Part shown: in pieces, positions 9,095 through 52,587 of the stretch | Position numbering within the stretch: position 1 is the first letter of the stretch | How the letters are laid out: each line of letters starts with the position of its first letter | Assembly: GCF_000027125.1 (NCBI RefSeq) | Contig: NC_017626.1 | Direction: 5' to 3' (one strand) | DNA from: Escherichia coli 042 | Lineage (GTDB): Bacteria; Pseudomonadota; Gammaproteobacteria; Enterobacterales; Enterobacteriaceae | Length of the DNA: 64,000 nucleotides | Notes under the pieces: generated by a model | What the model was told of the DNA's origin: nothing | What the model saw: the letters and a program-made list of their open reading frames with translations, nothing else | The model's database searches: none | Position numbers and translations under genes: made by a program

Positions 9095-9928
9095 ATGAAC
9101 ATCGAAAAAAGCAGATTAATTTCTGAGGCCGCCCCTCATCTGAACGCCTCTCTGGGCACAATTAACGGTAATGAATTTGCCGCAATTGTCCCGGTTATTC
9201 CTGGTCACATCGGTGGGCGTGAAACCAATATTGTTAGCGCAAAAGCGTTACACAAAGCGTTGGGCGTGGGAAAAGACTTCTCTACATGGATCACTGATCG
9301 CATCTCTGAATATGACTTCACCATTGGGCACGATTACTCAGTCCATAAAACAATTTCCCCAAATTTGGGGAAAAGCCCGAATGGCGCGGCTTACAGCAAG
9401 ATTAAGCAGTCTGGCAGACCCGGCAAAGACTATCTGTTAAGTGTCGGAATGGCGAAAGAACTGGCAATGATCGAACGCAATGATCAGGGTCGCGCTATCC
9501 GTCGTTATTTCATCCAGTGCGAGGAAGAATTACAGCGTAGCGTGCCTGAAATCGCCGCCCGCTATCGTCGCCAGCTAAAAGCCCGTATCAGTGCCGCAAA
9601 CAACTTTAAGCCAATGTGCGATGCGCTGAATATGGCCCGTGCCGAGCAGGGGAAAACGACGCAGCAACACCACTACACAAACGAGAGCAATATGATTTCT
9701 CGTATCGTTCTTGGAGGGCTAACTGCTAAGCAGTGGGCGCGGATAAATGGCTATTCTGGCGAACCTCGCGACCATATGAACGCAGAACAGCTTGAGCACC
9801 TCTCATATCTCGAAAGCACCAATATCACGTTAATTGATATGGGCATGGAATATGAGCAGCGCAAAGGAGAACTCACCCGCCTGTCGCAACGCTGGCTCGC
9901 CAAGCGTCTGGAGGCGGTCCATGTTTAA
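9095..9928 (+). CDS. Phage antirepressor-like protein (KilA-C / Ant-type)
   Basis: 277 aa; the segment DYLLSVGMAKELAMIERNDQGRAIRRYFIQCEEE resembles the KilA-C/antirepressor signature. Confidence 0.55.
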   Translation: MNIEKSRLISEAAPHLNASLGTINGNEFAAIVPVIPGHIGGRETNIVSAKALHKALGVGKDFSTWITDRISEYDFTIGHDYSVHKTISPNLGKSPNGAAYSKIKQSGRPGKDYLLSVGMAKELAMIERNDQGRAIRRYFIQCEEELQRSVPEIAARYRRQLKARISAANNFKPMCDALNMARAEQGKTTQQHHYTNESNMISRIVLGGLTAKQWARINGYSGEPRDHMNAEQLEHLSYLESTNITLIDMGMEYEQRKGELTRLSQRWLAKRLEAVHV

Positions 9929-10103
9929 GCCGACAGGAACACCACAACCTCAAAAACGCTACAAAGATGCCCACGGAGCACTCGTTACTGTCGAAAGCGT
10001 GTCTCACAACCGAGTGACGTTTTATCGCGACGGGTATCAATCGCCATGCGTACAACCGCTGGCGCGCTTCATGAAGGAGTTCGCGGAGGTTAACAAATGC
10101 TAA
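9921..10103 (+). CDS. Hypothetical small protein
   Basis: 60 aa; ATG overlaps the stop of the upstream gene. Confidence 0.4.
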   Translation: MFKPTGTPQPQKRYKDAHGALVTVESVSHNRVTFYRDGYQSPCVQPLARFMKEFAEVNKC

Positions 10104-10599
10104 CCGTCCAGAAGAAGATATTTTCACTGGCTGGTATGTCGCCAAAATCCAGCAATATGACAGCAAAGTCTGGCATTAATACAGCAGATGCAAGCAAAGT
10201 TTATCATTTTCTGGTGGTAGGAGCGGATGCCTTAACTATGTCAGAAATTACGGTCGATGGTGTTAGCGTTGAGAAGGTCGGCGGCTGCGCCAGAGAATTT
10301 CTGGTCGTAGATGGCTTTCTCTGCTCGCGTAGTGACTCCACAAAAACCTTCGTCCACACGCGCGACGTTAACGAAATGAGCGCGATGTATTGTGCATCTG
10401 GTGCTTCCAATAGTGAGTTTTCGGAGTCCATAAAAAAGAGCTTGCCGTTATGCGGCAACACGGTTTATGGTTATAAGGCACCTCATAAAACGGGTGCCGG
10501 GATTGGCGTCCTGGTAAATCGAATGGCGACATATGACGCGCCGAGCGTCTTTTTTTATGTCGTAGGTCTGACTCACCCATTTTTTGGGCGTTGGTGTAT

Positions 10600-10730
10600 A
10601 ATCCAGCGCCTTTGTCAATCAATGGTGGCTCAGGCAGGGGCTTCTTCGGAAGCGCCGGTATCCATTCGAGCCGGTTACGCCAACCCTGTCTGGGCTACCA
10701 CCAGCGAAATTGGCGTTTCCGGTGGTAGCG
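10600..10730 (+). ncRNA. Candidate structured RNA (P1 C4 / P4 CI-type immunity RNA) upstream of the icd-like ORF
   Basis: Block conserved with 51380..51505; the stem gctaccacc/ggtggtagc here corresponds to gctatcgcc/ggcgatagc there (compensatory changes), and a second hairpin gcttc/gaagc corresponds to cagcc/ggctg. Confidence 0.45.
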
Positions 10731-10758
10731 TTACATGCTATCGAATGGAGGCTGCCAC

Positions 10759-10953
10759 ATGCTGGCTACTACCCCTACCCAAAAACCGCAATTTATCTGG
10801 ATTATCGCCGCAGTTCGCCGCGATTGCCCGACAATTACCGCCAAAATTCATCATATTGCTGCCGAGTCTGAACGCGATGCTCGCCGTTCTCTGGTGCGCG
10901 ATCACGTCTGCTTTTTTGCTGGTCGTATCCGCATGGAGGTGGCACATGATTAA
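10759..10953 (+). CDS. Icd-like small protein (host cell-division inhibitor family, tentative)
   Basis: 64 aa; ...FIWIIAAVRRDCP...[15 protein letters not shown] is homologous to the island-2 ORF 51527..51724; RBS ggagg upstream. Confidence 0.5.
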   Translation: MLATTPTQKPQFIWIIAAVRRDCPTITAKIHHIAAESERDARRSLVRDHVCFFAGRIRMEVAHD

Positions 10954-11156
10954 AACCTACGATGTGCATATGGATCCCCTCGAACGCACAAGCCAGATCA
11001 TCACACTGACAGAAGTGATTAACGACATTCTGGTGAGCAACTCTCCCTCACGAGACGAAAGACTGAAGGCGTTACTCGCGATATTGGATCTCGCCGTTCG
11101 TGACGTTCATTTCCTGCTGGAAGGTGGCGAAATGCCAGGAAAAACGGGGGCAACCA

Positions 11157-11351
11157 ATGAATAACTCAATTAATGCCCCTCGACTTACGTCCGCACTTCA
11201 ATTAATCGAGCAAGCAGCGGCTGTCCTGGTTGCTGTCAGTCTTTCGGCTGAAGAAATGGACGCTGCTGATGTCGTGGATGCGATTAAAGCGTGCTCATCT
11301 TTGGTTAACGATGCCCGTGCAGAGCTGGTAATTCTTGGGGGTGAAAAATGA
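11157..11351 (+). CDS. Hypothetical small protein
   Basis: ORF 11100..11351, start placed at MNNSINAPRL; part of a chain of overlapping small ORFs upstream of the primase. Confidence 0.45.
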   Translation: MNNSINAPRLTSALQLIEQAAAVLVAVSLSAEEMDAADVVDAIKACSSLVNDARAELVILGGEK

Positions 11352-11611
11352 ATATCAACTTAATTTATCGTCATCCGTGTGAGCTGGAAATTGAATCATT
11401 GCTGAGTCGTGAAGAGCTATATCCAGACACATTCACTCTTGCAGATCGCACGACTGAACGGCTTACCAGAGCGCGCACAGGTCTGGTTCATGTGATGAAT
11501 GAGATTCTTCCATCGGTGGGAGGGGAACAGGCGACAGTAATCAATAGCTGGCTACAAAAAGTTACCTCCCTGATAGATATCAGTTTAATCGATGCGGAGA
11601 GTGCGAAATGA
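11348..11611 (+). CDS. Hypothetical small protein
   Basis: 87-aa ORF, start overlaps the upstream stop. Confidence 0.45.
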   Translation: MNINLIYRHPCELEIESLLSREELYPDTFTLADRTTERLTRARTGLVHVMNEILPSVGGEQATVINSWLQKVTSLIDISLIDAESAK

Positions 11612-11829
11612 CCAACATCCAGCTCATTGAAGCGCAATGTCGCATCGAACAGGTTCAGACTGTTTTAGGGTTCTGGCTTGAAGGGGCCAGCCCCAGCAAC
11701 AGAGACAAGTTAATGATTGGCGCGGTTATGTCACTGCTCAATGGCGTACCAGAAGCTATTCAGGAAGCAGACGAATTGTTGGGCAAATATGAGTTACAGA
11801 ATCATTCAGGCGAGGCGAAACATGAATAA
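11608..11829 (+). CDS. Hypothetical small protein
   Basis: 73-aa ORF, start overlaps the upstream stop. Confidence 0.45.
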   Translation: MTNIQLIEAQCRIEQVQTVLGFWLEGASPSNRDKLMIGAVMSLLNGVPEAIQEADELLGKYELQNHSGEAKHE

Positions 11830-12424
11830 TTTCTTAACCTTCCATGCAGAAGCAACGCCTGACGGCGTAAACATCATGCACCGCAGCAACGATGGCATGA
11901 CAGAACGCGTTGAGACCGTTTCATATATTGATGCCGTAAATCGTCTGGATGCCGGGGATTATGACGATAAACCAGATGAAGGTATGTCAATACATCTCGC
12001 TATTGCCGATGGCGGCAACCAGGGATATTTCGATTACACATCACAGCATAACGTCATTATGTGGAGATGGCTGATCGCAACAGTATTCATGCTGGAAATG
12101 AGAGAGGAAAACGGCACTGTCAGCATCATTGATGATACTGGCAATCCTTCCGAAGTGGCTGTTTATTCCAACGGCATCGTCGCCATGCCGCTGTATCCAG
12201 TAGCAGAGCGCCTCGCTATGGCAAACAACATTGAGGGCGCGATGATAGAACGTTTTGGCATCGAGTCTGGCACAGAACGCGCCATCATTTTCTACAGAGC
12301 CATGATGGATGTGGAACAAGGAGCACTGACTCCATTTGGTCGTGAAACGCTTGCTGAACTTCACAACAGCTTTATAGCTGAACTGAATGAAAACGGCATG
12401 CCAGCGGAACCAGTGACGCACTGA
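11822..12424 (+). CDS. Hypothetical protein
   Basis: ORF 11717..12424; start placed at MNNFLTFHAEA, overlapping the previous stop. Confidence 0.45.
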   Translation: MNNFLTFHAEATPDGVNIMHRSNDGMTERVETVSYIDAVNRLDAGDYDDKPDEGMSIHLAIADGGNQGYFDYTSQHNVIMWRWLIATVFMLEMREENGTVSIIDDTGNPSEVAVYSNGIVAMPLYPVAERLAMANNIEGAMIERFGIESGTERAIIFYRAMMDVEQGALTPFGRETLAELHNSFIAELNENGMPAEPVTH

Positions 12425-12434
12425 GGATGGATCC

Positions 12435-12776
12435 ATGATTACTAAAAATTTCCGACTGAATGCGCTGGCAAATAAGTATGCGTCGGCACTGTATAACCAC
12501 ATTACCTCCACCAGCGGCGGGGACTATTTCATGGTTCATGCGGACGGCGAGGCCGTCCGTGTGGAAATCGTCAATGGAGTAAAAGGCGTTCGCAGCCTGA
12601 TCGATAGCTACACACTGGCAGCCATGAAAGTGTTCTACCCGCAGTGGGAAACCGTGGGGATAGAGCTTCTTGATCGTTGCGTCACTAAGGACGGATTGAC
12701 TGACGTCGGGCGTGAGATATGGCAAAGCATGGTTAATGACATGGGCGCAACTGTAGCGGGAGGTTCTCATGCGTGA
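12435..12776 (+). CDS. Hypothetical protein
   Basis: 113-aa ORF. Confidence 0.45.
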   Translation: MITKNFRLNALANKYASALYNHITSTSGGDYFMVHADGEAVRVEIVNGVKGVRSLIDSYTLAAMKVFYPQWETVGIELLDRCVTKDGLTDVGREIWQSMVNDMGATVAGGSHA

Positions 12777-13140
12777 AAATGCAGAAATGGCGCTTAGCTC
12801 CGCAATCGGAGAGCAGGTGGCAAAGATTGCTGGCGCTGTGTGGATTCATAACCTTCATTCTACTGGTGAAGAGAAAATGGCAATTCAGACGCCAGAGGGA
12901 CGCACCATTACTACATCTCTGAAGGCGTCAGATGTTTGTGATCTGATTTGCGCATTCATGTACCCAGCAATGAGGACTGTCCACGGCGATAAGTGGAAAC
13001 TTGCGACAACCGCTGAATTTGATATGTGGCTAAACAATGATGGCATGCTGACTGATTACGGAATAACCAAGTGGCAGATGCTGGTTAGCCATATCGCAAA
13101 CGCTATAGACCACGTGGGGTACGGTGATGCGAAACATTGA
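12769..13140 (+). CDS. Hypothetical protein
   Basis: 123-aa ORF overlapping its neighbours. Confidence 0.45.
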   Translation: MRENAEMALSSAIGEQVAKIAGAVWIHNLHSTGEEKMAIQTPEGRTITTSLKASDVCDLICAFMYPAMRTVHGDKWKLATTAEFDMWLNNDGMLTDYGITKWQMLVSHIANAIDHVGYGDAKH

Positions 13141-15883
13141 TCTTATCCGCCAGGTTATCAGTGCGTCTGAAAACAACTGGCCTCATGTGCTGGGCTGCCT
13201 GAACATAAATGTCCCTGACTCTCCGCGCCGTCATGCTCCCTGCCCTGCATGTGGGGGCAAAGATCGATTCCGGTTCGATGACAACGGGCGCGGTAGCTTC
13301 ATCTGTAATCAGTGCGGCGCTGGTGATGGACTGGATTTAATTAAACGCGTAAATAACTGCGACACAACAGAGGCGGCGCTTCTTGCCGCTGATGTTCTGG
13401 GTATTGATTACCGGACAACGGAAACACCAGAAGCCACCAGCCAGAAACGGGAACAACTGGAAACCGAGCGCCAGCGACGCGAACAGGAGCGCCTGAAAAG
13501 GGCAGAGAAGGACGAACAACAAAGACGGGATACGTTTTCCCGTCAGTTTGATGACATGCGCAGAAAGGCTGTAAACGGCAAATCTGATTATCTGGTTGCG
13601 AAAGGGGTAGGTGATTTTACATTCCCCGTGTTGCCCGATGGATCTCTGTTGCTGGCGCTGGTGGATAAATCCGGCGCAGTAACAGCAGCACAGACTATTA
13701 CCTCACATGGTGAAAAAAGACTCCTGACAGGTTCAGCAAAGCGAGGGGCATATCACGCCATAAACGCACCAGAAACAACACAGAGCATCTTAATCGCAGA
13801 AGGGCTGGCAACGGCATTATCTGCCCATTTAATTCGTCCAGAGGCGCTGACAGTGGCGGCGATTGATGCCGGGAACCTGTTATATGTCGCCCAGGTACTG
13901 CGGGATAAATTTCCTTCAGCACAAATCATCATTGCTGCGGATAACGACCACAGCGAAGGAAGACAAAACACGGGGAGAATAGCAGCAGAAAAAGCAGCTT
14001 TATCTGTTTCTGGATGGGTGGCATTACCCCCGACAGATCACAAAGCAGACTGGAATGATTACCACCAAAAACACGGCATTAAATGCGCCACAGAAGCGTT
14101 CAATAAGTCAATGTACCAACCACAGGGTAATGGCGTGAAACAGGAGCCACAGACCATTGAGGGAAGCGATTTTAAGGTTATGGATACCGACCCACTGAAA
14201 CCAAGAATAGAAAGCCGCGAGGATGGTATTTATTGGGTATCTCCGAGAGCTGACAGCCAGAGTGGAGAAATCATCAATAACGAAAGCTGGTTATGTTCTC
14301 CGTTAAGCGTTATCGGTACTGGCAGAGACGATAAAGACCAGTATCTCATTCTTCGCTGGCTGTCGTTTGGTTCTGAAACGCCGACAACCGCTGCCATTCC
14401 ACTGGCTGATATTGGTGAACGTGAAGGATGGCGCACACTTAAAGCTGGTGGGGTAAATGTCACGACCAAAAGCAGCCTCAGAGCAATACTGGCAGACTGG
14501 CTACAACGCAGTGGCTCTCGTGAATTGTGGCGTGTTGCTCATGCCACTGGCTGGCAATGCGGAGCGTACATCATGCCTGATGGGGAAATCATCGGAACAC
14601 CTGAAAATCCTGTGCTGTTCAGCGGGAGAAGCTCAGCCGCAGCCGGATATACCGTCTCAGGGAGCGCGAAAAGCTGGCGTGATAACGTGGCGCGTCTGGC
14701 CTTTGGTAACTATTCAATGATGACCGGGATCGGCGCAGCACTGGCAGCGCCATTGATTGGGCTGGTGGGCGCTGACGGGTTCGGCATTCATTTCTATGAG
14801 CAGTCGAGCGCAGGTAAGACCACCACGGCAAACGTGGCGAGCAGCTTATACGGCAACCCTGATTTACTGCGGCTGACGTGGTACGGAACCGCGCTGGGGC
14901 TGGCAAATGAGGCCGCCGCCCACAATGACGGACTAATGCCGCTTGATGAAGTTGGTCAGGGCGCTGATCCTGTCAGCGTTTCACAGTCTGCCTATGCGTT
15001 ATTTAACGGTGTAGGGAAACTGCAAGGCGCTAAAGATGGTGGAAACCGGGATCTAAAACGCTGGCGTACAGTGGCAATCAGCACCGGAGAAATGGATTTA
15101 GAAACATTTATCGCTACTTCCGGGCGAAAAACCAAAGCCGGGCAACTGGTGCGACTGCTGAATATTCCGTTGAGTAAAGCAGTACGCTTTCACGATTACC
15201 AGAACGGAAAACAGCACGCAGACGCACTGAAAGACGCTTACCAGCATCACCACGGCGCAGCCGGGCGTGAGTGGATTAAATGGCTGGCAGACCACCAGCA
15301 ACAGGCAATTAAAACTGTTCGTGACTGCGAAAGCAGATGGAGAAGTCTGATCCCATCCGATTATGGTGAGCAGGTTCACCGTGTAGCCGCGCGATTTGCC
15401 ATTCTGGAGGCCGCATTGCTGTTAGGCGAGGTTGTAACAGGCTGGGATGCTCAGACATGCCGTGATGCGATACAGCACAGCTATAACGCATGGTTGCGCG
15501 AGTTCGGCACAGGTAACAAAGAACATCAGCAGATTATTGAACAAACGGAGGCATTTCTTAATGCCTATGGGCTTAGCCGTTTTGCACCATTTCCATACAG
15601 CCCGGCAGATTTGCCCATCAAAGATTTAGCCGGATACCGTCAGCGTGGAGAACATGACGAAAGCCCAATGATTTTCTACACATTCCCGGCCACATTTGAA
15701 AAGGAGATCGCATGTGGTTTCAACGCAAAACAGTTTGCTGAAGTGTTGAAAAAAGCCGGGATGCTAACCCCACCAAACAGCGGTCGTGGATACCAAAGAA
15801 AATCACCACGTATTCAGGGACGACAAATAAACGTTTATGTACTCAATTACCAGCCAGGAGATTACAACTCATCTGAAGAATGA
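13124..15883 (+). CDS. P4 alpha-like primase/helicase (zinc-binding N-terminus, TOPRIM primase, D5-type NTPase)
   Basis: 919 aa; CPACGGKDRFRFDDNGRGSFICNQCGAGDGLD parallels the island-2 alpha N-terminus; IAEGLATAL...IIIAADND (TOPRIM); SSAGKTT (P-loop). Confidence 0.85.
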   Translation: MMRNIDLIRQVISASENNWPHVLGCLNINVPDSPRRHAPCPACGGKDRFRFDDNGRGSFICNQCGAGDGLDLIKRVNNCDTTEAALLAADVLGIDYRTTETPEATSQKREQLETERQRREQERLKRAEKDEQQRRDTFSRQFDDMRRKAVNGKSDYLVAKGVGDFTFPVLPDGSLLLALVDKSGAVTAAQTITSHGEKRLLTGSAKRGAYHAINAPETTQSILIAEGLATALSAHLIRPEALTVAAIDAGNLLYVAQVLRDKFPSAQIIIAADNDHSEGRQNTGRIAAEKAALSVSGWVALPPTDHKADWNDYHQKHGIKCATEAFNKSMYQPQGNGVKQEPQTIEGSDFKVMDTDPLKPRIESREDGIYWVSPRADSQSGEIINNESWLCSPLSVIGTGRDDKDQYLILRWLSFGSETPTTAAIPLADIGEREGWRTLKAGGVNVTTKSSLRAILADWLQRSGSRELWRVAHATGWQCGAYIMPDGEIIGTPENPVLFSGRSSAAAGYTVSGSAKSWRDNVARLAFGNYSMMTGIGAALAAPLIGLVGADGFGIHFYEQSSAGKTTTANVASSLYGNPDLLRLTWYGTALGLANEAAAHNDGLMPLDEVGQGADPVSVSQSAYALFNGVGKLQGAKDGGNRDLKRWRTVAISTGEMDLETFIATSGRKTKAGQLVRLLNIPLSKAVRFHDYQNGKQHADALKDAYQHHHGAAGREWIKWLADHQQQAIKTVRDCESRWRSLIPSDYGEQVHRVAARFAILEAALLLGEVVTGWDAQTCRDAIQHSYNAWLREFGTGNKEHQQIIEQTEAFLNAYGLSRFAPFPYSPADLPIKDLAGYRQRGEHDESPMIFYTFPATFEKEIACGFNAKQFAEVLKKAGMLTPPNSGRGYQRKSPRIQGRQINVYVLNYQPGDYNSSEE

Positions 15884-16645: not shown

Positions 16646-17107
16646 ATGGAACTAAAATTTATTGATAACCCTGTGCGATTACAGGCCTTTCTTAACGATC
16701 CTGGCAATACCGAAAATATTGTTGAGCCGGGGCACACGTACTACATCAAGCCTGATGCGGTATATCTCGGCATCTACGAAGGATTGGTGCTGGCTGGCGT
16801 TCATGAAGTGCGTAACTTCTGGCATAGCATTGTTGAATGCCATGCGGTGTACGACCCCGGATTCCGTGGTGAATATGCACTGCAAGGGCATCGATTATTC
16901 TGCAAATGGCTTCTCGAAAACTCACCATTCCTTAACAGCATCACTATGGTTCCTGACACCACGAAATACGGACGGGCAATTATCCGTTTGCTTGGCGCTA
17001 CCCGTGTTGGTCACCTTGATGATGCTTATATCAGATGTGGTAAACCCGTCGGCGTAACGCTTTATCAGTTAACTCGGCAACAATATAAGGAATTCAGCGA
17101 ATGTTAA
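16646..17107 (+). CDS. Hypothetical protein, first gene of a four-gene coupled operon
   Basis: 153-aa ORF; its stop overlaps the next start. Confidence 0.55.
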   Translation: MELKFIDNPVRLQAFLNDPGNTENIVEPGHTYYIKPDAVYLGIYEGLVLAGVHEVRNFWHSIVECHAVYDPGFRGEYALQGHRLFCKWLLENSPFLNSITMVPDTTKYGRAIIRLLGATRVGHLDDAYIRCGKPVGVTLYQLTRQQYKEFSEC

Positions 17108-17778
17108 TTACCCATATAGCTCATAAACATCTCAATCGTGCCGTATACGAAAAAGGCGGTGATGGTGGTGCCTCTAAAGCTCAGGCGAAGGCCCAGCAGC
17201 AGGCAATTGATTTGCAGCGCGAGCAGTGGAATACGGTGATGAATAATCTCAAGCCGTATGCAGAAGTCGGATTGCCTGCTTTACAACAACTACAAGGACT
17301 GATGACTCTGGAAGGGCAGAATAAAGCCGCGAATGATTTCTTTGGTTCTGGTTTATATAAAACACAGGCAGATCAGGCCCGTTATCAGAACCTTGTCTCA
17401 GCAGAAGCTACCGGGGGGCTTGGCTCAACAGCTACCAGTAACCAGTTATCTTCCATTGCGCCCATGCTTTATAACAATTGGCTTAGTGGGCAAATGCAAA
17501 ATTATGGAAACCTGCTAAATGTCGGGATGAATGCGGCATCAGGGCAGGCAACGGCAGGGCAAAACTACGCCAATAATACCGGACAACTCTTGCAGGGGCT
17601 TGGCGCTATTCGTGCAGGTCAGGCGCAGCAGCCATCCAGTCTTGCGCGTGGTATTGGTGGGGCGGCATCAGGCGCTTTAGCGGGTGCGCAACTTGGTTCC
17701 GTTGTTCCGGGTATAGGTAATGTCGCCGGGGCTATTGGTGGTGGGCTTATTGGTCTTGTTGGGGGGCTTGGATTCTAA
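17101..17778 (+). CDS. Hypothetical protein with glycine-zipper C-terminus
   Basis: 225 aa; C-terminus GIGGAASGALAGAQLGSVVPGIGNVAGAIGGGLIGLVGGLGF. Confidence 0.55.
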   Translation: MLITHIAHKHLNRAVYEKGGDGGASKAQAKAQQQAIDLQREQWNTVMNNLKPYAEVGLPALQQLQGLMTLEGQNKAANDFFGSGLYKTQADQARYQNLVSAEATGGLGSTATSNQLSSIAPMLYNNWLSGQMQNYGNLLNVGMNAASGQATAGQNYANNTGQLLQGLGAIRAGQAQQPSSLARGIGGAASGALAGAQLGSVVPGIGNVAGAIGGGLIGLVGGLGF

Positions 17779-19199
17779 TGGCGACATGGCAACTTGGCGG
17801 GCTGCCTAGCATGGCACCGCAAAATGATAATGCTCCTCGTTCTTCCGTTCCTCAGCCTGTGCAGTATCAGCAGCAGCCAAACGTAGGTTTAATGGCGCTA
17901 CAGGGGCTAAGAGGCGTTGCTGAGATTAATCAGCAGGCACGTCAACAACAGCGTAAAGCAGAGTTTCAGAAAGCATATGCCGGGGCTTTTGAGTCTGGAG
18001 ACAGAAACAAAATGCGCAGTCTTATTTCTGAGTATCCAGAAGAATTTGAAAGCGTTCAGAAAGGGATGGGCTTTATTGATGACGACCAGAGAAATTCTAT
18101 TGGTCATCTTGCGACTAGTGCTCAAATCGCATCTTCGCTCGGAACTGGGGCATTTGGAAAATTCATAGCAGATAACGAAGATGAAATGCGTCGCTTGGGA
18201 ATTTCTCCTGAGTCTGTTGCCGAAATGCATGTTAATGATCCACAGGAATTCCAGCGGCTTGCTGGTAGTATGGCACTGTTTTCTCTCGGTCATGAGAAGT
18301 ACTTCGATATCAAAGATCGAATGGAAGGTCGGGATATTGAGCGTGGCAAGTTGGCAGAGACAATCCGCAGCAATCAGGCTGGAGAGGCGCTTCAGGCGAG
18401 AGGGCAGGATATTAGCCGAGCAAATGCGTTAACGTCAGCATATGCACCAACAGCCGCAATGCAGAATTACAATCAGTACGCGCAAATGTTAAAGGCGGAT
18501 CCAGAGGGGGCAGCGGCATTTGCGGCAGCGGCTGGAATTAATACAAACGCCAAAAAATTAATGAGTGTTAGGGAAAACGATGATGGCACTGTCACAAAAT
18601 ACTACACAGACGGAAGTGAAGAGCAGGGAAAACTAAACCAGCCAATATCTGGAGATGGGTTTCGTCCAATAGCTTTGCCAACAGCCCAAAAGATCATGGA
18701 AAAGTCGCCAGAAGGGGCTAAAAAAGCTGCTGGATTTGCATACAGAGTTAGGGATGCTCTTGATTCAATGGATACACTGAAAGGCCAGCTTAGCCCACAG
18801 CGAGTGGCGATCATTAATAATGCTTTGGGTAATGGGACGCTGGCTAACTTAACGCTCAGCCCAACAGAGCAGCAATACGTTGTTAATGCTAATGACGCAA
18901 TAATGGCAATACTCCGTCAGGAAACAGGGGCAGCTATCGTACCTGCTGAAATGTCAAAATATTATCAAATGTATTTCCCTCAGCCTGGCGACTCCACAAA
19001 AACCATTGATACCAAGCGCCGGAAGATGGAAAACCAGTTCAATTCGCTGAAAGCTGCTTCTGGTCGAGCTTATGATGCTTTGCGTGTTATTTCAGCAGTT
19101 GACAGAGGAACTTCTTCTTCGTCGCAGACATTGCCGCAATCTGAGCAGGTATCACAGCCAGCAGCCAGCAGTAATTTTTCTTCACTATGGGGTGATTAA
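17778..19199 (+). CDS. Hypothetical protein (Q/A-rich)
   Basis: 473-aa ORF, start overlaps the previous stop. Confidence 0.55.
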   Translation: MATWQLGGLPSMAPQNDNAPRSSVPQPVQYQQQPNVGLMALQGLRGVAEINQQARQQQRKAEFQKAYAGAFESGDRNKMRSLISEYPEEFESVQKGMGFIDDDQRNSIGHLATSAQIASSLGTGAFGKFIADNEDEMRRLGISPESVAEMHVNDPQEFQRLAGSMALFSLGHEKYFDIKDRMEGRDIERGKLAETIRSNQAGEALQARGQDISRANALTSAYAPTAAMQNYNQYAQMLKADPEGAAAFAAAAGINTNAKKLMSVRENDDGTVTKYYTDGSEEQGKLNQPISGDGFRPIALPTAQKIMEKSPEGAKKAAGFAYRVRDALDSMDTLKGQLSPQRVAIINNALGNGTLANLTLSPTEQQYVVNANDAIMAILRQETGAAIVPAEMSKYYQMYFPQPGDSTKTIDTKRRKMENQFNSLKAASGRAYDALRVISAVDRGTSSSSQTLPQSEQVSQPAASSNFSSLWGD

Positions 19200-44605: not shown

Positions 44606-44700
44606 GGAAGATCGTCGTCTCCGGTGAGGCGGCTGGACTTCAAATCCAGTTGGGGCCGCCAGCGGTCCCGGGCAGGTTCGACTCCTGTGATCTTCCGCCA
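44606..44700 (+). tRNA. selC: tRNA-Sec (selenocysteine, anticodon UCA)
   Basis: 95-nt ggaagatcgtcgtctccggtgaggcggctggacttcaaatccagttggggccgccagcggtcccgggcaggttcgactcctgtgatcttccgcca; long extra arm; anticodon loop cTTCAaa. Confidence 0.95.
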
Positions 44701-44702
44701 AA
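44680..44702. repeat. attL core (3' end of selC)
   Basis: gactcctgtgatcttccgccaaa, repeated exactly at 55733..55755. Confidence 0.8.
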
Positions 44703-44862
44703 CTTCATCCAGCCAGTTCCGAGATGATCCATAAAACCATTTATATTCAATATGATGAATAATCATCTTATCCGTAACAGTCCGAGATCGTCTCCCTAAA
44801 TCCGCGAAAAATATGTATAGTAATGTGTATAGATTTTTTATAAGTAGTTTTCAGTTATACAC

Positions 44863-46044
44863 ATGGCTCTCACCGATATACAGATCAAACGTGCAAAACC
44901 ACAAGACAAGCCATACACATTGAACGATGGACAAGGTCTGTCATTGCTTATCAATCCCGATGGCTCGAAAGGCTGGCGTTTCCGTTTCCGGTTTGCAGGG
45001 AAAGCGCGGTTAATGTCATTTGGCAGCTACGATTTAGTAAGCCTCGCAGAAGCACGTGAGAAGCGTGATATCGCCCGTAAGCAGGTTGCTAATGGCATTG
45101 ACCCGGTAGAGGAACGCAAAGCTTTAAGACTCGCCCAAAAGCTATCAACAGAAAATTCTTTCGAAGCAATATGTCGAGAATGGCATACCAACAAAGCTGA
45201 CCGCTGGACTGTGGCCTATCGAGAAGAAATCATTAAGACATTCGAGCAAGATGTCTTCCCGTTCATTGGTAAACGTCCTATCAGTGAAATCAAACCATTA
45301 GAACTGCTTGAAGTATTACGACGAATCGAAAAACGTGGAGCACTAGAGAAAACACGCAAGGTGCGTCAAAGATGCGGTGAGGTTTATCGCTATGCAATCA
45401 TAACTGGCCGTGCTGAGTACAATCCTGCACCTGATTTAGCTATCGCTCTGGCCGTTCCCAAGCAAAAACACCATCCATTTTTATCCGCTGAAGAGTTGCC
45501 TCATTTTATTCGAGATCTTGAAGCGTATACCGGTAGCATCATCACCAAAAATGCTACGAAGATAGTCATGCTGACTGGTGTAAGAACGCAGGAGATGCGC
45601 TTTGCTACGTGGGAAGAAGTAGACCTCGAAAAAGGTATATGGGAGATACCAGCGGAACGTATGAAAATGCGTAGACCTCACATTGTTCCTTTATCTACTC
45701 AGGTAGTTGACCTTTTCAAACAGCTCAAACCTATTACCGGCCATTACCCTTACATCTTTATTGGTAGGAATAACCGTAATAAACCAATCTCAAAAGAAAG
45801 TGTATCACAAGTAATTGAGTCACTCGGTTACAAAGGACGTGCTACCGGTCACGGTTTTAGACATACAATGTCGACAATTCTACATGAGCAGGGGTTTGAT
45901 AGTGCATGGATTGAGATGCAATTAGCACATGTGGACAAAAACAGTATTCGTGGGACATATAACCATGCCCAGTATCTGGAAGGCAGAAAAAAAATGATGA
46001 ATTGGTATGCTAATCATATCTTTAATATAGGGGTTCCTAAATGA
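44863..46044 (+). CDS. int: P4-type tyrosine integrase
   Basis: 393 aa MALTDIQIKRAKPQDKPYTLNDGQGLSLLINPDGSKGWRFRF; sits beside attL. Confidence 0.9.
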   Translation: MALTDIQIKRAKPQDKPYTLNDGQGLSLLINPDGSKGWRFRFRFAGKARLMSFGSYDLVSLAEAREKRDIARKQVANGIDPVEERKALRLAQKLSTENSFEAICREWHTNKADRWTVAYREEIIKTFEQDVFPFIGKRPISEIKPLELLEVLRRIEKRGALEKTRKVRQRCGEVYRYAIITGRAEYNPAPDLAIALAVPKQKHHPFLSAEELPHFIRDLEAYTGSIITKNATKIVMLTGVRTQEMRFATWEEVDLEKGIWEIPAERMKMRRPHIVPLSTQVVDLFKQLKPITGHYPYIFIGRNNRNKPISKESVSQVIESLGYKGRATGHGFRHTMSTILHEQGFDSAWIEMQLAHVDKNSIRGTYNHAQYLEGRKKMMNWYANHIFNIGVPK

Positions 46045-46179
46045 CAAACAATGTTCTTACCATACATAATCGCTTGTTTATCAACCAGTTACATTTCTAT
46101 AGAATGAATTTCACTTATATCAACTACAACGGTTGACATTTAAAAAATATTAACATTTAAAAAAAGTAGGAGCTACGCA

Positions 46180-47616
46180 ATGTGCATAGAATTAAAAAAG
46201 TTTTCAATTAAAAAATTATATGGCTATAAAGACATACATCTAATTTTCAATAAAAAAAGTACAATTATCATTGCAGAGAATGGTGCTGGCAAAACTACGC
46301 TAATCAATGCACTTAAATCCACCTTAAAAGGTGAGTTTGATGAACTAAGAAAAATCAAGTGTGAGAGTATTGATATAGAGTTTTCTGATCAAAAATTCAC
46401 ATTGAATATTGCAGCATTAAGTTATTCTGATTTTCTGAATAATGCATTGTTACCAACTAGATTTCGTGAAATCACGAAAAATCTTAATAATACACAAATT
46501 GAAGATGCATTAGCATTTCTAAGACATAAACCAGTGAAGGATGCCCGTCAGACTACATGGTACCGAAAAATGTATCATACAACTCCTTATAATTACATTG
46601 ATATCGACTCGACATTATCCGAAGTCAAAATCTTATTAAAAAATCATTATTCATCTCTTGAAAAACCTGATCTTTTCTCTGTAAATAAACCAGAACTGTC
46701 TAAAACCATCCATGCAATAGAGGAAATAAAACAGAAAACAAAAAATATTGAAATAATATATTTACCTACATACCGACGCATTGAAAAATCTACACTTCGT
46801 GATAAGTTTACTAGAGATGAAAATGAAAAATTCGTCTTTAGAGATGGAGAGATCGTCAGTATTCGCGAGGAAAGTGAAACTAACTTAAATATAGAGTTTG
46901 GTTTGTTTGATGTTGAATCAAAATTAAAAGATTTAAGCGCATCCATTGAGCGCCGTTCAAGTTTAGGCTATAGAAAGTTAAGTGCAACCATAATTGAAGA
47001 TATGATGACAGGAAAAGCCAGTGCCCCAACAAAACCTAAACTGCCATCTGTATCTGAATTATCAAGATTTTTAGGTAGGGTAGTTAATAAAGATAAGGAA
47101 AGTAATAAGAGGATAATTCAAGAAGTTACAAGCATCATGGAAAATAAAGATATGCTCGCATCAAATAATATGCTGAGTTATTTCCTATCTAAATTAAAAG
47201 CTGTCATCGACTCAACTAAAGAGCTCGAACTAAAAATAGAGAGCTTTGTTACCATTTGCAATAAATATCTACAGTTATCAGATGATTCAAAATCGCTAAA
47301 TTTTGACATTGAAACATTACAAGTTATTGTAAAAGACTTATTCACAAATAACCCCATTGAATTAGAAGATCTTTCCTCAGGCGAAAAACAAATAATTTCT
47401 TTGATGGCTCATATGTATCTTGACCATACTAAGAAAAAAATTGTTTTAATAGATGAACCAGAATTATCGCTCTCACTTGAATGGCAAGAGCATGTCCTCG
47501 TAGATATAGTGAATAGCCCTTCAGTTACTCAAATGCTTGCAATAACACATTCACCTTTTGTTTTTAATAATGAACTGAAATCCCAAGTAACATCTTTGAA
47601 AGTTATCAAGCATTGA
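46180..47616 (+). CDS. ABC-type ATPase (AAA_15/AAA_21-like), candidate AriA-like (PARIS) or AbiLi-like defense ATPase
   Basis: 478 aa; Walker A AENGAGKTTLINAL; Walker B/D-loop IVLIDEPELSLSLEW; H-loop-like AITHSP; AT-rich; SD gtaggag 8 nt upstream; in the P4 int-psu cargo slot. Confidence 0.7.
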   Translation: MCIELKKFSIKKLYGYKDIHLIFNKKSTIIIAENGAGKTTLINALKSTLKGEFDELRKIKCESIDIEFSDQKFTLNIAALSYSDFLNNALLPTRFREITKNLNNTQIEDALAFLRHKPVKDARQTTWYRKMYHTTPYNYIDIDSTLSEVKILLKNHYSSLEKPDLFSVNKPELSKTIHAIEEIKQKTKNIEIIYLPTYRRIEKSTLRDKFTRDENEKFVFRDGEIVSIREESETNLNIEFGLFDVESKLKDLSASIERRSSLGYRKLSATIIEDMMTGKASAPTKPKLPSVSELSRFLGRVVNKDKESNKRIIQEVTSIMENKDMLASNNMLSYFLSKLKAVIDSTKELELKIESFVTICNKYLQLSDDSKSLNFDIETLQVIVKDLFTNNPIELEDLSSGEKQIISLMAHMYLDHTKKKIVLIDEPELSLSLEWQEHVLVDIVNSPSVTQMLAITHSPFVFNNELKSQVTSLKVIKH

Positions 47617-47624
47617 GGATTAGA

Positions 47625-48551
47625 ATGGACGATCTTCGTTTTAATATGATGATGGATGCGATCAAAAAACCGTGTGTTTTGAGATTAAAGCTAATTAAAA
47701 ACAAAAAGGCAGGAAAGGCTTTATTTGTTTTCGAAGGTGACGATGACTATGATTTCTATCATCATGCTATAACTATTTCCGGTTTCGATAAAGAATATAC
47801 TCATATAAATGGGGCAGGAAAGAACCAATCTATTTCCCTTTATGAAGAATTATATAAAGAAAATAGTGATAATTTACAAAACACATATTTTTTTGTTGAT
47901 CAAGATTACTCTACCTTCTGTTACTCTAATAAAAACATAGTAACACTTCCATTTTATGCCATTGAGAACCCATTATCAGATGATAGAGTAATAAAACATT
48001 TTATAATCTCAACATTTAAACTTGACGAAAGGCATAGCAAAATTATAAATAGCGTTATGGGCTTTTATTCTAAGGCAAAAGCTAGCTTTTATTCTGAGAT
48101 AAAAAACATATCTATACAGCTGTATATGTCCAGAATACTTGGACTCGCGATAGAGTTTCCTTCAAACCATGAATTATTCGAAAAAATTGAAAAGGAAAAA
48201 GTCACCCTTAAAATAAATGAAATACCGGCAATTACTGATCGGTTAAAAAAAATAACAAAAGACGAAGAGAATTACTACAAAGTAATTTCCACTCTAGATA
48301 ATGACAAACTGACTAGAGGAAAGTATGTTTACTATTTTGTTAGCGAGTGGTTAATCCGCATAAAAAAATACATCAATTCAAGGATAGATAGTATAAATAA
48401 TGAAAGCGCCTTAAACTCTACCTCTTCAGTAGTGAATGAAAAAAAATTATCCAAACAACAATATGATCATACTGACCTGTCAATCGCAAGGCTTGTTCCT
48501 GCATGTATGAAAGTAAAAGAATTGGATGCTTTCTTAAAAAGGATTAATTAA
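47625..48551 (+). CDS. TOPRIM / DUF4435-like protein, candidate AriB-like (PARIS) or AbiLii-like effector
   Basis: ORF track starts at a TTG (47613); I place the start at the ATG 47625 with SD gagga 6-10 nt upstream. LFVFEGDDDYDFY and FFVDQDY fit TOPRIM Glu and DxD acidic motifs; AT-rich; separated from the upstream ATPase stop by 8 nt. Confidence 0.65.
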   Translation: MDDLRFNMMMDAIKKPCVLRLKLIKNKKAGKALFVFEGDDDYDFYHHAITISGFDKEYTHINGAGKNQSISLYEELYKENSDNLQNTYFFVDQDYSTFCYSNKNIVTLPFYAIENPLSDDRVIKHFIISTFKLDERHSKIINSVMGFYSKAKASFYSEIKNISIQLYMSRILGLAIEFPSNHELFEKIEKEKVTLKINEIPAITDRLKKITKDEENYYKVISTLDNDKLTRGKYVYYFVSEWLIRIKKYINSRIDSINNESALNSTSSVVNEKKLSKQQYDHTDLSIARLVPACMKVKELDAFLKRIN

Positions 48552-48570
48552 TAATAAAACACTGCGGGCG

Positions 48571-48589
48571 GTGCTTTCCCCGCCTCGCC
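48571..48589 (-). other. cos site (P2/P4 19-nt cohesive end)
   Basis: Reverse complement of gtgctttccccgcctcgcc is ggcgaggcggggaaagcac, the P2/P4 cohesive end as recalled; an adjacent hairpin ccgcccg-ctttgc-cgggcgg plus tttt (48589..48612) may act as a terminator. Confidence 0.7.
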
Positions 48590-48754
48590 CGCCCGCTTTG
48601 CCGGGCGGTTTTAATGCAGTTGCGCTGACACGCTCAGGCCGCGTCGGGCGCGGCGTGAGCTGCAGAAAATGAGTCAGGAAAACGCATGCAAAGCCATGCA
48701 CCTTATCGATGCATGGCTTTTTTCAGTAAAAACAGGCGGATTTTTCGGGGAGTT

Positions 48755-49327
48755 TTACACAGACTGACGTGATGCCAGTTCTGCACTTTTACGCGAAAAA
48801 ATCATGTTCTGCGCAGGGGTGAATTTTTCACGGCTGTCATCCACCGAAGCCGCGTCAGGCCTGAATCCGATGGTCGTTAAAATGTCGCTATCCTGTGCGG
48901 AATAATTAATTTTTTCCCCCTTCGCAAGCCAGGACAGAAGGGCTTCACGCAGGACATCTGTGGCACGCTGTATGGCACAGTTTCGGGCAATGGCCGTCAG
49001 CTCACTGTAGCCCATCAGCTCCGGTGCCAGTGCGGCCGCCAGTGCTGTGCCGTGCTGCTGCATAAAATCATTCAGCCGCTCGCGGATGCTGATGTGCTGA
49101 ACGGCTTCATGCGAACGAACATAACGACCGGCGGCCTGATTCACCTGCCATTTTCTGACTTCGATAATATTGCGTAATTCGTCCAGGCGACTGACGTTTC
49201 TGCCTTCCCCGGACAGAAGCCGCAGATATTCCTGTTCGGCTGCCGCCAGTTCATTTTTGCGCTGAAGCCATGCCGCTTTGTTATTCTGGCAGACCTCAAA
49301 AGCCTGCTGTAATGACATTGTGGTCAC
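48755..49327 (-). CDS. psu: Polarity suppression protein Psu (capsid decoration / Rho antagonist)
   Basis: 190 aa; MTTMSLQQAFEVCQNNKAAWLQRKNELAAAEQEYLRLL closely matches P4 Psu as recalled. Confidence 0.85.
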   Translation of the reverse strand: MTTMSLQQAFEVCQNNKAAWLQRKNELAAAEQEYLRLLSGEGRNVSRLDELRNIIEVRKWQVNQAAGRYVRSHEAVQHISIRERLNDFMQQHGTALAAALAPELMGYSELTAIARNCAIQRATDVLREALLSWLAKGEKINYSAQDSDILTTIGFRPDAASVDDSREKFTPAQNMIFSRKSAELASRQSV

Positions 49328-49341
49328 ACCCCGTCCCCTGA

Positions 49342-49587
49342 TTAATGGTTGAATGGTGAGCTGTAACAGCCTTTAACTTTTCGGACAACAGCCGGTGCTG
49401 TGCTTACCGGTGCTGGTTTTTCCTCCGTGACCGGAGAACGAATCACGGCACAAATTGACTCATGCGTTTTAAATGTCGCCGAACAGTAAATATTCTGGCA
49501 CTGCAGATAACTTTCTTTGACATTGTCACTCACATACCGGCTGGTGCGGGTATGCGCTGAATGACGACAGAAAGGGCAGCGCATCAT
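49342..49587 (-). CDS. delta: Ogr/Delta-family zinc-finger late transcription activator
   Basis: 81 aa; CPFCRHSAHTRTSRYVSDNVKESYLQCQNIYCSATF (C4 zinc finger); single-domain form. Confidence 0.8.
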   Translation of the reverse strand: MMRCPFCRHSAHTRTSRYVSDNVKESYLQCQNIYCSATFKTHESICAVIRSPVTEEKPAPVSTAPAVVRKVKGCYSSPFNH

Positions 49588-50318
49588 GACAGCAGTCCTC
49601 TGGCCTTAAGCTCTGCTCCCTGCTGGTCTATTTTGTCCTGCCACACCTTGCGCTGTGCCGGTGTGCCTGCCACCTCATAATCCATGTGCGGGAGTGTTGC
49701 CGCTGACAGTCCGGTCAGCCGGAGAACCGGCTCGCCGGTGAGGCTGATTTGCATCTGTTTTATTTTCTGTTCCAGCGATGATTTCACCTGCTGCATGACA
49801 GCCTTTTCCGGCGCGACGTAGCCCTGATGGCCGGTGGTGTTGGCGAGCGGATTTTCCTGTACCAGGATGCTCAGATGCATTGCCCGGACAAGCGCCTCAC
49901 AGGTTTCATTCAGGGCGTGTTCCAGCTCATGCTCTGCATACAGACTCAGCAGGTGATGATGTGCCTTCCGGTAGGCGGTGGCCGTGCTGTCACACGCCCC
50001 TTTCAGGCGTTCACGTTCAAAATTCAGCACCACGGCCAGATTGTCATATTCCTGTACCAGCTCCCGGCGTGCCACGCGCTCAATGTGGCGCTGTTTCAGC
50101 TCGTCGCTCAGGACACCACCGGCTGCACGAAAGGCCGTGCGCCAGTCGTCAGCGTCGTTTCCGTCGGCCTGCGCCAGCGCATTTTTTTCCTGCTCTGCCC
50201 GTTCAATGGCCGTGACGGTCTCATCCATCAGGCGGGCGTTCTCAAGATGGGCGGCTCTGGCCTTTTCCAGTTGTGCCAGCGCGGGTTGCAGATATTCAGG
50301 GATGGTGTTGTCAGACAT
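49584..50318 (-). CDS. sid: Capsid size determination protein Sid (external scaffold)
   Basis: ORF 49584..50384; start placed at MSDNTIPEYLQPALAQ (aggag SD 5 nt upstream), giving 244 aa, the length I recall for P4 Sid; position upstream of delta and psu. Confidence 0.7.
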   Translation of the reverse strand: MSDNTIPEYLQPALAQLEKARAAHLENARLMDETVTAIERAEQEKNALAQADGNDADDWRTAFRAAGGVLSDELKQRHIERVARRELVQEYDNLAVVLNFERERLKGACDSTATAYRKAHHHLLSLYAEHELEHALNETCEALVRAMHLSILVQENPLANTTGHQGYVAPEKAVMQQVKSSLEQKIKQMQISLTGEPVLRLTGLSAATLPHMDYEVAGTPAQRKVWQDKIDQQGAELKARGLLS

Positions 50319-50487
50319 TTTCCGGCTCCTCGTCACTTCAGGTTGAGAAAATTGTGACGTACACCGGACAACAACACGACGCATTGCAGATGTGCCAGCC
50401 CTGACACAGGAGACTCATCCTCAGACCGGCAAGCCAGGAAAAGGTCGCAGGAAAAACCGGCTTACTGTTTGTTTTTTTTATATTTTA

Positions 50488-50592
50488 CTGTTCACCTCTG
50501 TTCACCATAAGAAAAAAGATAAGTAATACAGTAAGTTAAAGGGTGAACAATCGCAGTAATGACTGTTCACCGTCTGTTCACCACTGTTCACC
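50488..50592. repeat. Iteron cluster (TGTTCACC / GGTGAACA), alpha-binding ori- or crr-type repeat in the sid-vis intergenic region
   Basis: At least six TGTTCACC octamers in both orientations within about 105 bp; the P4 type I iteron is TGTTCACC as recalled; which of ori or crr this set represents is not resolved. Confidence 0.6.
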
Positions 50593-50870
50593 CGTTGATG
50601 GGCTTTTTGTGCTGTTTATTACTTTTTATTTTTATTAATTCACTGAAATAAATAAGAAAAAACAATTTGTATTTCACTATAATTTTTTCCAGCTCCTTCC
50701 AGAGCGTTTTAAAGCTATCTGGCGCTGATGTACAAAAAATACACAGCCATTGTAAGGCTGCCGGAACAAATCCCCCCTGTTGCGTCTGCCGAAAATATTC
50801 ACAAAATAAAGCGCTACCCGAAGCCGGACGGACTTATCCGGTGCTGTATGGACATTAACGAGGTAGCCCG

Positions 50871-51505: not shown

Positions 51506-51526
51506 CTACTCGAAGGAGGCTGCCTT

Positions 51527-52452: not shown

Positions 52453-52587
52453 TTAAAAAACGACACCCGAAAAATTAAATGTGCGTATTCGCGCAGGGAT
52501 ACGCACGTCTTCAGGAGACGCAGATATGCCTTATCAGTTAATGCAACCGGCACAGAATGCAGTCATCTGTCACAGGGAGGAAAGCAA

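Follow-up and report, generated by a model that had tools for sequence, protein, structure and literature searches.

Small acidic genes between a C4-type RNA and the primase of an EcCIMP1-type satellite in Escherichia coli 042

What is encoded by the small open reading frames (ORFs) that separate the RNA immunity element of a phage satellite in Escherichia coli 042 from its primase gene, and what might their products contribute to the life of the element? The satellite, referred to here as island 1, is contained within a 64,000-nucleotide stretch of contig NC_017626.1 (assembly GCF_000027125.1), hereafter called the window, and all coordinates are counted from its first nucleotide. An earlier note on this DNA had described six such ORFs as a chain of overlapping frames, had likened their position to that of epsilon and orf151 in phage P4, and had proposed that they might function in helper derepression or counter-defense. 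The feature is an ordinary but uncharacterized part of a published satellite type, namely that of EcCIMP1 from E. coli strain MP1. The explanation favored here has three components: the ORFs are real genes, they belong to a coupled operon that is gated by an RNA, and they include a domain family related to ORF106 of P4. Taken whole, it is put forward tentatively, as falling somewhat short of probable, and its components differ in strength.

A chain of nine cistrons

As had been claimed, six + strand ORFs of 64 to 200 residues occupy exactly positions 11157-13140. The chain to which they belong, however, begins two genes earlier, with an Icd-like gene followed by an additional ORF designated orf0, such that nine cistrons (icd, orf0 through orf6, and the primase gene) are joined. 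Each cistron downstream of icd begins a few bases from the previous stop codon. The overlaps that had been described are present at five of the six junctions when that with the primase gene is included, and they amount to 4 nt for orf1/orf2 (ATGA) and orf2/orf3, 8 nt for orf3/orf4 and orf5/orf6, and 14 nt for orf6/primase. The exception is the orf4/orf5 junction, at which there is a gap of 10 nt. Overlaps of 8 nt also connect the Icd-like gene with orf0 and orf0 with orf1. All of orf1 through orf6 start with ATG, and a purine-rich motif resembling a Shine-Dalgarno sequence is positioned 6-10 nt upstream of each.

The frames display the hallmarks of coding DNA. On the + strand, ORFs of at least 60 residues cover 99.5% of positions 10946-13140, a value reached by none of 1000 mononucleotide shuffles (mean coverage 19.8%, maximum 61.7%). 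The ratios of nonsynonymous to synonymous substitution rates (dN/dS), calculated pairwise against diverged homologues, are 0.1-0.3 for icd, 0.1-0.4 for orf4, 0.1-0.2 for orf5, and 0.11 for orf6 (at a dS of 0.69). The corresponding values are 0.19-0.32 for orf0 (at a dS of ~1.5-1.8), the homologues of which are 38-53% identical in 10 related loci, and 0.2-0.4 for orf3, with homologues of 31-48% identity. The frame of orf2 is retained at 52-62% amino acid identity, where dS is saturated; among near-identical islands its dN is approximately equal to its dS, and the substitutions are concentrated at residues 20-35. For orf1 only close relatives exist (dS of 0.065 or less), among which no constraint is measurable.

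Each of the seven exact protein sequences (orf0 through orf6) occurs in public collections, always under no name or a wrong one, and the number of contigs ranges from 364 to more than 1000. That of orf0 is found on at least 1000 contigs, and so is the orf1 cluster, which has 265 members. Among 5426 complete E. coli genomes, 253 contain at least 80% of the 2.2-kb stretch, and 560 contain parts of it. Conservation of the frames in related islands, by which the earlier note had judged that its idea would stand or fall, was checked, and the frames are indeed conserved. It is thus nearly certain that the ORFs are real protein-coding genes, and for orf1 considered by itself the same conclusion is still very probable.

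The annotation of this region has obscured its beginning. Positions 11000-13200 are 100% identical to the corresponding DNA of E. coli strain U15A, and in the RefSeq annotation of that locus the same six coding sequences (CDS) are each listed as "hypothetical protein." The Icd-like gene is without annotation there, and it is called Icd-like in MP1 and other genomes. As for orf0, it lies inside the 3' end of a 355-residue "ash family protein" CDS (10097-11164, RefSeq), the name of which derives from a match of residues 124-232 to the Pfam family Phage_ASH (PF10554). Since the matching stretch is the DNA that encodes the isrK-like and C4 RNAs described below, this CDS was rejected as an artefact.

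The same family also matches the obsolete "cI protein" ORF of P4 and not epsilon, which is PF25738. The correspondence of PF10554 to translated DNA of the isrK-like and C4/CI immunity RNAs extends to 51089-51724 of the window, in a second satellite (island 2), and to 8168-8584 of P4 (locus L009). Surveys in which PF10554 serves as a marker for epsilon (Methods of PMC8628076) probably detect the RNA locus instead.

The C4 RNA and the leader of icd

Upstream of icd are located an isrK-like RNA, a C4-type antisense RNA, and a leader containing two target sites for the latter, a2 and b2 (Table 1). The isrK-like RNA holds the upstream copies of the C4 targets, a1 at 10500-10509 and b1 at 10519-10526, and at its 3' end there is a terminator-like hairpin (site 10535-10549) followed by a T run. 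Within the C4 RNA, the loop designated b' (UCCAUUCGA) corresponds to positions 10661-10669 and loop a' to positions 10677-10686. All nine nucleotides of b' are complementary to b2, which overlaps the GGAGG Shine-Dalgarno sequence of icd (10747-10751), and loop a' pairs with a2. A comparison of 31 distinct leaders reveals 11 variants of b', and in 24 of the leaders b2 is exactly complementary to b'; the a', a2, and a1 sites covary too. The pairing between the C4 RNA and the icd leader has been kept by compensatory changes across many islands.

Near-identical EcCIMP1-like islands have differing sets of C4 specificities, and island 2 has its own (sites 51234-51520). Because these a/b sets differ, co-resident islands should, as far as pairing predicts, be heteroimmune. 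The comparison also suggests that C4 specificity switches rapidly.

A consensus scan revealed no promoter-like and no terminator-like site on the + strand between 10760 and 13140. Further upstream, at 10595-10602, a motif resembling an extended -10 element (TGTATAAT) precedes by ~15 nt the start that Rfam assigns to the C4 RNA. This motif, which may be a promoter for the C4 RNA and the downstream operon, does not appear in the output of the consensus scan.

A well-known system with a similar layout is the immI region of phages P1 and P7 (c4-icd-ant). Both it and island 1 have a C4 RNA, a1/b1 and a2/b2 targets, an icd-like gene as first cistron with b2 lying over its ribosome-binding site, and downstream genes joined to icd. 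They differ in that icd is followed in island 1 by orf0 through orf6, all small and with acidic products, and by the primase gene rather than by an antirepressor gene, and in that the Ant-like gene of island 1 lies upstream of the RNA. Work on P1 by Biere in 1992 and Riedel in 1993 is said to have described a block of icd translation, coupling, and Rho-dependent polarity. Full repression of the P1 genes downstream of icd requires the C4 RNA (PMC8198154).

In the mechanism proposed here, icd, orf0 through orf6, and the primase-helicase gene would constitute one packed early operon of an EcCIMP1-type satellite. By analogy with P1, pairing of the C4 RNA with the leader would block the translation of icd such that nothing downstream is made. 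The block would pass along the chain by translational coupling, transcriptional polarity, or both, and the absence of gaps would let a single contact between the RNA and a ribosome-binding site silence seven small genes together with the primase gene. Because a blocked icd would silence the entire chain, the small proteins and the primase are expected to appear jointly, and only when immunity is lifted, presumably after induction of a helper phage. We regard it as likely that icd through the primase gene form one RNA-gated operon. In line with the supposition of the earlier note that the small proteins are early ones, the genes are predicted from sequence to be expressed early in the cycle of the satellite, under the control of its immunity element.

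Table 1. Features of island 1 from the isrK-like RNA to the primase-helicase gene
Feature	Coordinates	Strand	Properties
isrK-like RNA	10478-10555	+	Rfam RF01394, 67.1 bits (gathering score 50)
C4-type antisense (immunity) RNA	10618-10705	+	Rfam RF01695, 79.5 bits (gathering score 45)
Leader with downstream C4 targets	10709-10751	+	a2 10709-10716, b2 10741-10749
Icd-like gene	10759-10953	+	64 residues; NCBIfam NF033153, E 3.7e-20; first cistron of the chain
orf0	10946-11164	+	72 residues, pI 4.8; unannotated; ATG with GGAGG upstream
orf1	11157-11351	+	64 residues, pI 4.2
orf2	11348-11611	+	87 residues, pI 4.9
orf3	11608-11829	+	73 residues, pI 4.7
orf4	11822-12424	+	200 residues, net charge ~-21
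orf5	12435-12776	+	113 residues; one copy of the orf4 C-terminal module
orf6	12769-13140	+	123 residues; paralogue of orf5
Primase-helicase	13127-15883	+	zinc ribbon, Toprim, and DUF927 (Pfam); last cistron

Cassettes, the orf4 module, and P4 ORF106

Related islands were collected by scanning IMG/VR with an alignment of orf4, which yielded 79 loci; the chains were compared in the 39 satellite-like loci that have both icd and a primase gene. In all 39, the interval between these two genes is occupied by a gap-free chain of two to nine small ORFs, the junctions of which are nearly all -4, -8, -5, or -1 nt, apart from a gap of 9-10 nt after orf4 and comparable short gaps ahead of some primase genes. 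Given that orf4 served as the query, it is present in every locus; orf5 occurs in most and orf6 in few. There are also E. coli variants without orf5 and orf6, or without orf6 alone, in which orf4 or orf5, respectively, abuts the primase gene. Variably present among the loci are orf0, orf2, orf3, and ~8 further families of 59-166 residues. Whereas orf2 is a widespread cassette, found also fused to another (S5_166), orf1 is restricted to the EcCIMP1 lineage, and the other islands mostly have an unrelated 59-residue family (S1_59) at the head of the chain. The shortest chain, that of locus L030, consists of two ORFs. The genes orf0 through orf3 are drawn from a pool of ~12 interchangeable cassettes.

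A 75-residue, basic-looking cassette (S7_75) sits between orf4 and orf5 in four loci (L050, L052, L060, and L062). De Sousa and Rocha described a family of 75 residues that 61% of P4-like elements carry between epsilon and alpha (PMC8628076), and S7_75 may be that family.

All of the proteins encoded by orf0 through orf6 are acidic, with pI values of 4.2-5.8, and the upstream regulators are basic. Searches of Pfam, NCBIfam, PHROGs, and PADLOC provided no functional name for the ORFs, with the PADLOC profiles giving matches at the level of chance only (E of 0.009 or greater). Of the smaller proteins, orf3 matches phrog_20558 (E of 2.9e-9), and no PHROG profile matches orf0, orf1, orf2, or orf6. 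Sequence searches of the Protein Data Bank (PDB) returned nothing meaningful; a match of orf2 to a designed repeat protein contains no single stretch above threshold. When orf0 through orf3 and orf6 were compared by tblastn with 50,697 phage records, no match was found. Kinship among orf0, orf1, orf2, and orf3, which had been suggested by eye, was rejected (Smith-Waterman z of 1.75 or less, hhalign E of 0.048 or greater), and the joining of orf2 with orf3 in a single-linkage cluster was due solely to the fusion protein S5_166. Homologues of orf2 are often named "nicotinic acetylcholine receptor subunit beta" in RefSeq and GenBank, a misannotation that has been propagated.

In P4, epsilon, orf151, and ORF106 fill the slot that separates the RNA immunity element from the primase gene, and the ORFs of island 1 fill the equivalent slot; in this respect the comparison made in the earlier note was correct. 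They are not, however, counterparts of epsilon, which functions in helper derepression, or of orf151: none of them matches the epsilon family or orf151, and no similarity to either is detectable in orf0 through orf6. The PF25738 profile, which recovers P4 epsilon itself with an E of 9e-51, matches none of orf1 through orf6, and hhalign comparisons of all cassette families, orf0 included, with epsilon gave E of 0.076 or greater.

The three genes closest to the primase gene are of a different nature. Both orf4 and orf5 belong to sizable families, matching phrog_1515 (E of 1.2e-47; 123 clusters at 50% identity) and phrog_37628 (E of about 3e-49; 125 clusters, all from Enterobacterales), respectively. 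The orf6 family is rare, with 15 clusters among 5.8 billion proteins. That orf5 and orf6 are paralogues is indicated by a Smith-Waterman z of 7.9 (0 of 300 shuffles) and hhalign E of 1.4e-4 to 5e-4. The AlphaFold2 model of orf4 (pLDDT of 94.6, pTM of 0.89) contains an N-terminal part, residues 1-73, of three strands and two helices, followed by a C-terminal part, residues 74-191, that begins with a long helix and a hairpin, continues with two helices and a mini-hairpin, and ends with a helix. The model of orf5 (pLDDT of 92.4) runs through the elements of this C-terminal part in identical order, and hhalign aligns the C-terminal part of orf4 with orf5(+6) with an E of 5.5e-5 over 86 columns. 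An internal duplication of orf4, in which its N- and C-terminal halves would correspond, was rejected (hhalign E of 0.25).

By hhalign, residues 76-186 of orf4 match the single sequence of P4 ORF106 with a probability of 89.7% and an E of 1.8e-6, and 25 sequences of DUF5375, the family to which ORF106 belongs, with a probability of 93.6% and an E of 2.1e-7. In addition, orf4 weakly matches phrog_5991 (E of 0.02), which is the family of P4 ORF106. A search of IMG/VR undertaken to widen the DUF5375 profile returned relatives of 90-100% identity only. Among solved structures, no match was found to the confident AlphaFold models of orf4 and orf5, and no known DNA mimic was matched. The structure prediction and remote homology search called for in the earlier note thus connected the C-terminal part of orf4 with DUF5375, but uncovered neither a solved structure of this kind nor a relation to epsilon or orf151. 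On the basis of these sequence comparisons, the C-terminal module of orf4 is probably homologous to DUF5375.

In P4, ORF106 is located directly upstream of alpha, in the slot that it shares with epsilon and orf151, and like orf4 through orf6 it thus stands directly ahead of a primase gene in an immunity-controlled left operon. The likeness has limits. The orf4 protein has double the length of ORF106, with an additional N-terminal part and with β hairpins inserted within the aligned region; the pI of ORF106 is near neutral (6.95) whereas orf4 through orf6 are acidic; and in island 1 two additional single-module paralogues, orf5 and orf6, follow orf4. We take ORF106 to be Cnr, which acts on the alpha primase and negatively regulates the replication of P4. 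Terzano in 1994 and Ziegelin in 1997 reportedly equated ORF106 with cnr and found that Cnr binds alpha, and alpha mutations conferring resistance to Cnr are said to map to the C-terminal region of the primase. De Sousa and Rocha placed cnr between epsilon and alpha and found it in 90% of P4-like elements (PMC8628076).

The association of these genes with the primase gene is conserved. The orf4-(orf5)-primase adjacency is retained down to 42-45% identity (L054-59 and L067-70). Within one orf4 clade, the first 300-350 residues of the primases are 81-100% identical, and their C-terminal halves are unrelated (~25% identity), being of the DUF927 type in some and of the P4-alpha/DUF5906 type in others (primases of L029-L052). 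A recombination breakpoint lies inside the primase gene at approximately residue 350, and the block comprising orf4, orf5, and the N-terminus of the primase moves together.

Three features lead us to favor the possibility that the orf4 through orf6 proteins are modulators of replication: their kinship with ORF106, their conserved position beside the N-terminal region of the primase, and their acidity, the last of which argues for binding to protein rather than to DNA. They may bind a replication initiator or the primase, thereby tuning replication of the satellite, and orf0 through orf3 may bind proteins of the helper or the host. A replication-modulating function like that of Cnr is nevertheless doubtful. 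Less probable still is the most specific form of the idea. It holds that orf4 through orf6 constitute a structurally new family of ORF106-related modules with which satellites and some temperate phages seize the initiator or primase, that the triplication of the module in EcCIMP1-type islands perhaps serves to act on the replisomes of both satellite and helper, and that orf0 through orf3 form a hitherto unrecognized, C4-gated hotspot for exchangeable mini-proteins aimed at the helper or the host.

Homologues of orf4 and orf5 exist outside satellites as well. Homologues of orf4 (31-36% identity) occur in 36 phage records and those of orf5 (61-64% identity) in two; the carriers include phiP27 (L06), Stx phages, phi467, and CharmingMan. 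These genes of temperate enterobacterial phages (phrog_1515 and phrog_37628) are as uncharacterized as those of island 1, and in the records inspected they differ in location, lying in the early-left region between the repressor gene and xis/int rather than beside a primase gene.

Several observations weigh against the explanation preferred here. The orf4 homologues that were inspected in phages occupy early-left operons, beside antirepressor genes and far from any primase, and it is for this reason untenable that the orf4 family as a whole has a function specific to P4-type primases. Phage Stx1_499, which carries an orf4 homologue, has O plus DnaB-type replication, with no Toprim primase in the part examined. 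In the islands themselves, orf4 clades do not follow the C-terminal type of the primase, and some natural variants (L005 and L006) do without orf5 and orf6. The link to DUF5375 consists solely of profile-profile scores: the PF17345 (DUF5375) profile, which scores P4 ORF106 and its island 2 copy at 209-211 bits, gives no match to orf4, orf5, or orf6 even at an E of 1 or less, 0 of 56 members of the orf4 family match it at an E of 0.01 or less, and direct hhalign comparisons of orf5 and orf6 with DUF5375 gave no match, such that these two are connected to it via orf4 only. Finally, every cistron carries its own Shine-Dalgarno-like motif, and for that reason the coupling may be non-obligatory.

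The host island and competing explanations

Island 1 contains, in order, genes for an integrase, an AlpA-like helix-turn-helix (HTH) protein, a 143-residue protein, an AntA/AntB protein (9095-9928, upstream of the RNAs), and a DUF4222 protein, followed by the RNAs, icd, orf0 through orf6, and the primase gene. Beyond these are located a DUF2824 gene, DNA-ejection-like genes, an HTH gene on the opposite strand, and a PerC gene. In gene content and order, from integrase to PerC, it matches EcCIMP1 of strain MP1 (locus L010), in which the six ORFs correspond to genes annotated as hypothetical that lie between those for the "Ash family protein" and the primase. Protein identities are 98-100% for orf0 through orf6, the primase, the DUF2824 protein, and a 225-residue protein encoded downstream of it. 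The two islands differ in their sites, that described here being beside yicC and that of MP1 at tRNA-Thr beside proA, and in their integrases, which are 29% identical; the C4 a/b specificity in E. coli 042 is unlike that of several otherwise near-identical islands.

EcCIMP1 is a phage-inducible chromosomal island (PICI) whose excision and transfer depend strictly on Kapi1, a temperate phage of the P22-like kind, and also require AlpA (PMC11773190). The authors of that study, Pick, Stadel, and Raivio (ISME J 2025), left the ORFs considered here as hypothetical and unstudied (PMC11773190). Neither psu nor sid nor delta appears in the RefSeq annotation of the locus identical to island 1, with the reservation that not every ORF was searched with profiles. 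Given the gene-for-gene match with EcCIMP1 and the lack of annotated psu, sid, and delta, the description of island 1 as a P4-like, P2-dependent element has to be abandoned. Since EcCIMP1 is mobilized by P22-like Kapi1, a P2-like prophage is the wrong helper for the derepression assay that had been suggested.

Two further regions of the window are of note. Downstream of the primase gene, positions 16646-21300 encode the DUF2824 protein, the 225-residue protein, a 473-residue "DNA ejection protein," and a protein of ~700 residues. This cluster looks similar to genes 14/7/20/16 of phage P22, which is in keeping with a P22-like helper such as Kapi1 and hints that ejection proteins are supplied by the satellite itself. 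Island 2 (44863-55256, in the region 44606-55256) is a canonical P4-like satellite at tRNA-Sec that does have psu, delta, and sid. Its order is integrase, cargo, psu, delta, sid, alpA, isrK/C4, icd, orf151, DUF5375 (here equated with cnr), and alpha, and the cargo consists of two genes (478 and 312 residues; 46180-48551) in the known int-psu defense hotspot.

Of the competing explanations, the most serious is a broader role for orf4 and its neighbors in counter-defense, host takeover, or binding of host replication or repair factors, and it is serious precisely because the phage homologues lie far from any primase. On this view the proteins, possibly as DNA mimics, would counter nucleases of the host, restriction, and further anti-phage systems, and from the moment immunity is lifted they would shield phages with orf4 as well as the satellite during its replication. 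Genes directed against RecBCD or restriction usually reside in the early-left accessory operons of phages, where homologues of orf4 and orf5 are found beside antirepressor genes. An early operon, seven acidic products with orf4 the extreme example, the turnover of cassettes among islands, and the near equality of dN and dS for orf2 would all be in keeping with such a role, which would also account for orf4 in phages devoid of a P4-type primase. No similarity to known anti-defense or defense proteins emerged, however, from PADLOC, Pfam, PHROGs, or the PDB, the folds match no known DNA mimic, and neither the adjacency of orf4 and orf5 to the N-terminal region of the primase nor the link to ORF106 is explained. 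We consider it unlikely.

According to a second alternative, one or more of the small proteins bind a repressor, replication, or packaging protein of the P22-like helper and thereby derepress it, interfere with it, or redirect it, much as P4 epsilon acts on the repressor of P2. The restriction of orf1 to one lineage and the cassette-like behavior of orf0 through orf3 are what might be expected for partner-specific binders, and the position is that of P4 epsilon. But the resemblance ends there, given the lack of similarity to epsilon (PF25738) or orf151 and the difference in helper, P22-like rather than P2, and the AntA/AntB antirepressor encoded upstream is a more obvious derepressor. Moreover, EcCIMP1 altered neither the titres of Kapi1 nor the expression of a CI reporter, and a Kapi1-like prophage is present in only 2 of 21 strains carrying EcCIMP1 (PMC11773190). 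Manipulation of the helper is accordingly judged improbable.

It is also conceivable that the chain encodes toxic effectors of the abortive-infection type, silenced by the C4 RNA together with Icd and arresting the host when the island is activated. Both P4 and P1 have kil or icd functions at the corresponding position, and the joining of the small genes with an Icd-like division inhibitor under tight antisense control fits the notion. No toxin-like domain, evident transmembrane segment, or match to a defense model was found among the proteins, and the strong purifying selection and the linkage to the primase gene are better suited to the element's own cycle, which makes this explanation very unlikely. 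The idea that the cistrons are spacers, their translation rather than their products relaying ribosomes from icd to the primase gene, draws on gap-free coupling as the most conserved feature of chains whose content varies from two to nine ORFs, and on the absence of measurable constraint on orf1, but it can be set aside as scarcely credible since dN/dS values of 0.1-0.4 and the confident, well-packed folds of orf4 and orf5 speak for selection on the proteins, and since the two-ORF chain of L030 demonstrates that fewer than seven cistrons would suffice for a relay.

To return to the explanation preferred here, that of an RNA-gated operon of real genes with an ORF106-related domain family, EcCIMP1-type islands and their relatives are common, and a quarter of their early operon has been unannotated or misannotated. 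Two genes have now been restored from under a bogus "ash" call, and the upstream part of the operon has been recognized as an array of cassettes behind an RNA gate supported by covariation. The remote link of orf4 through orf6 to the ORF106 family of P4, with a fold unlike those of solved structures, leads to the hypothesis that these proteins control replication, and the proper experimental helper is a P22-like phage rather than P2. If it is true that the ORF106-related module binds primases, it would represent a new fold for the control of replication in mobile elements.

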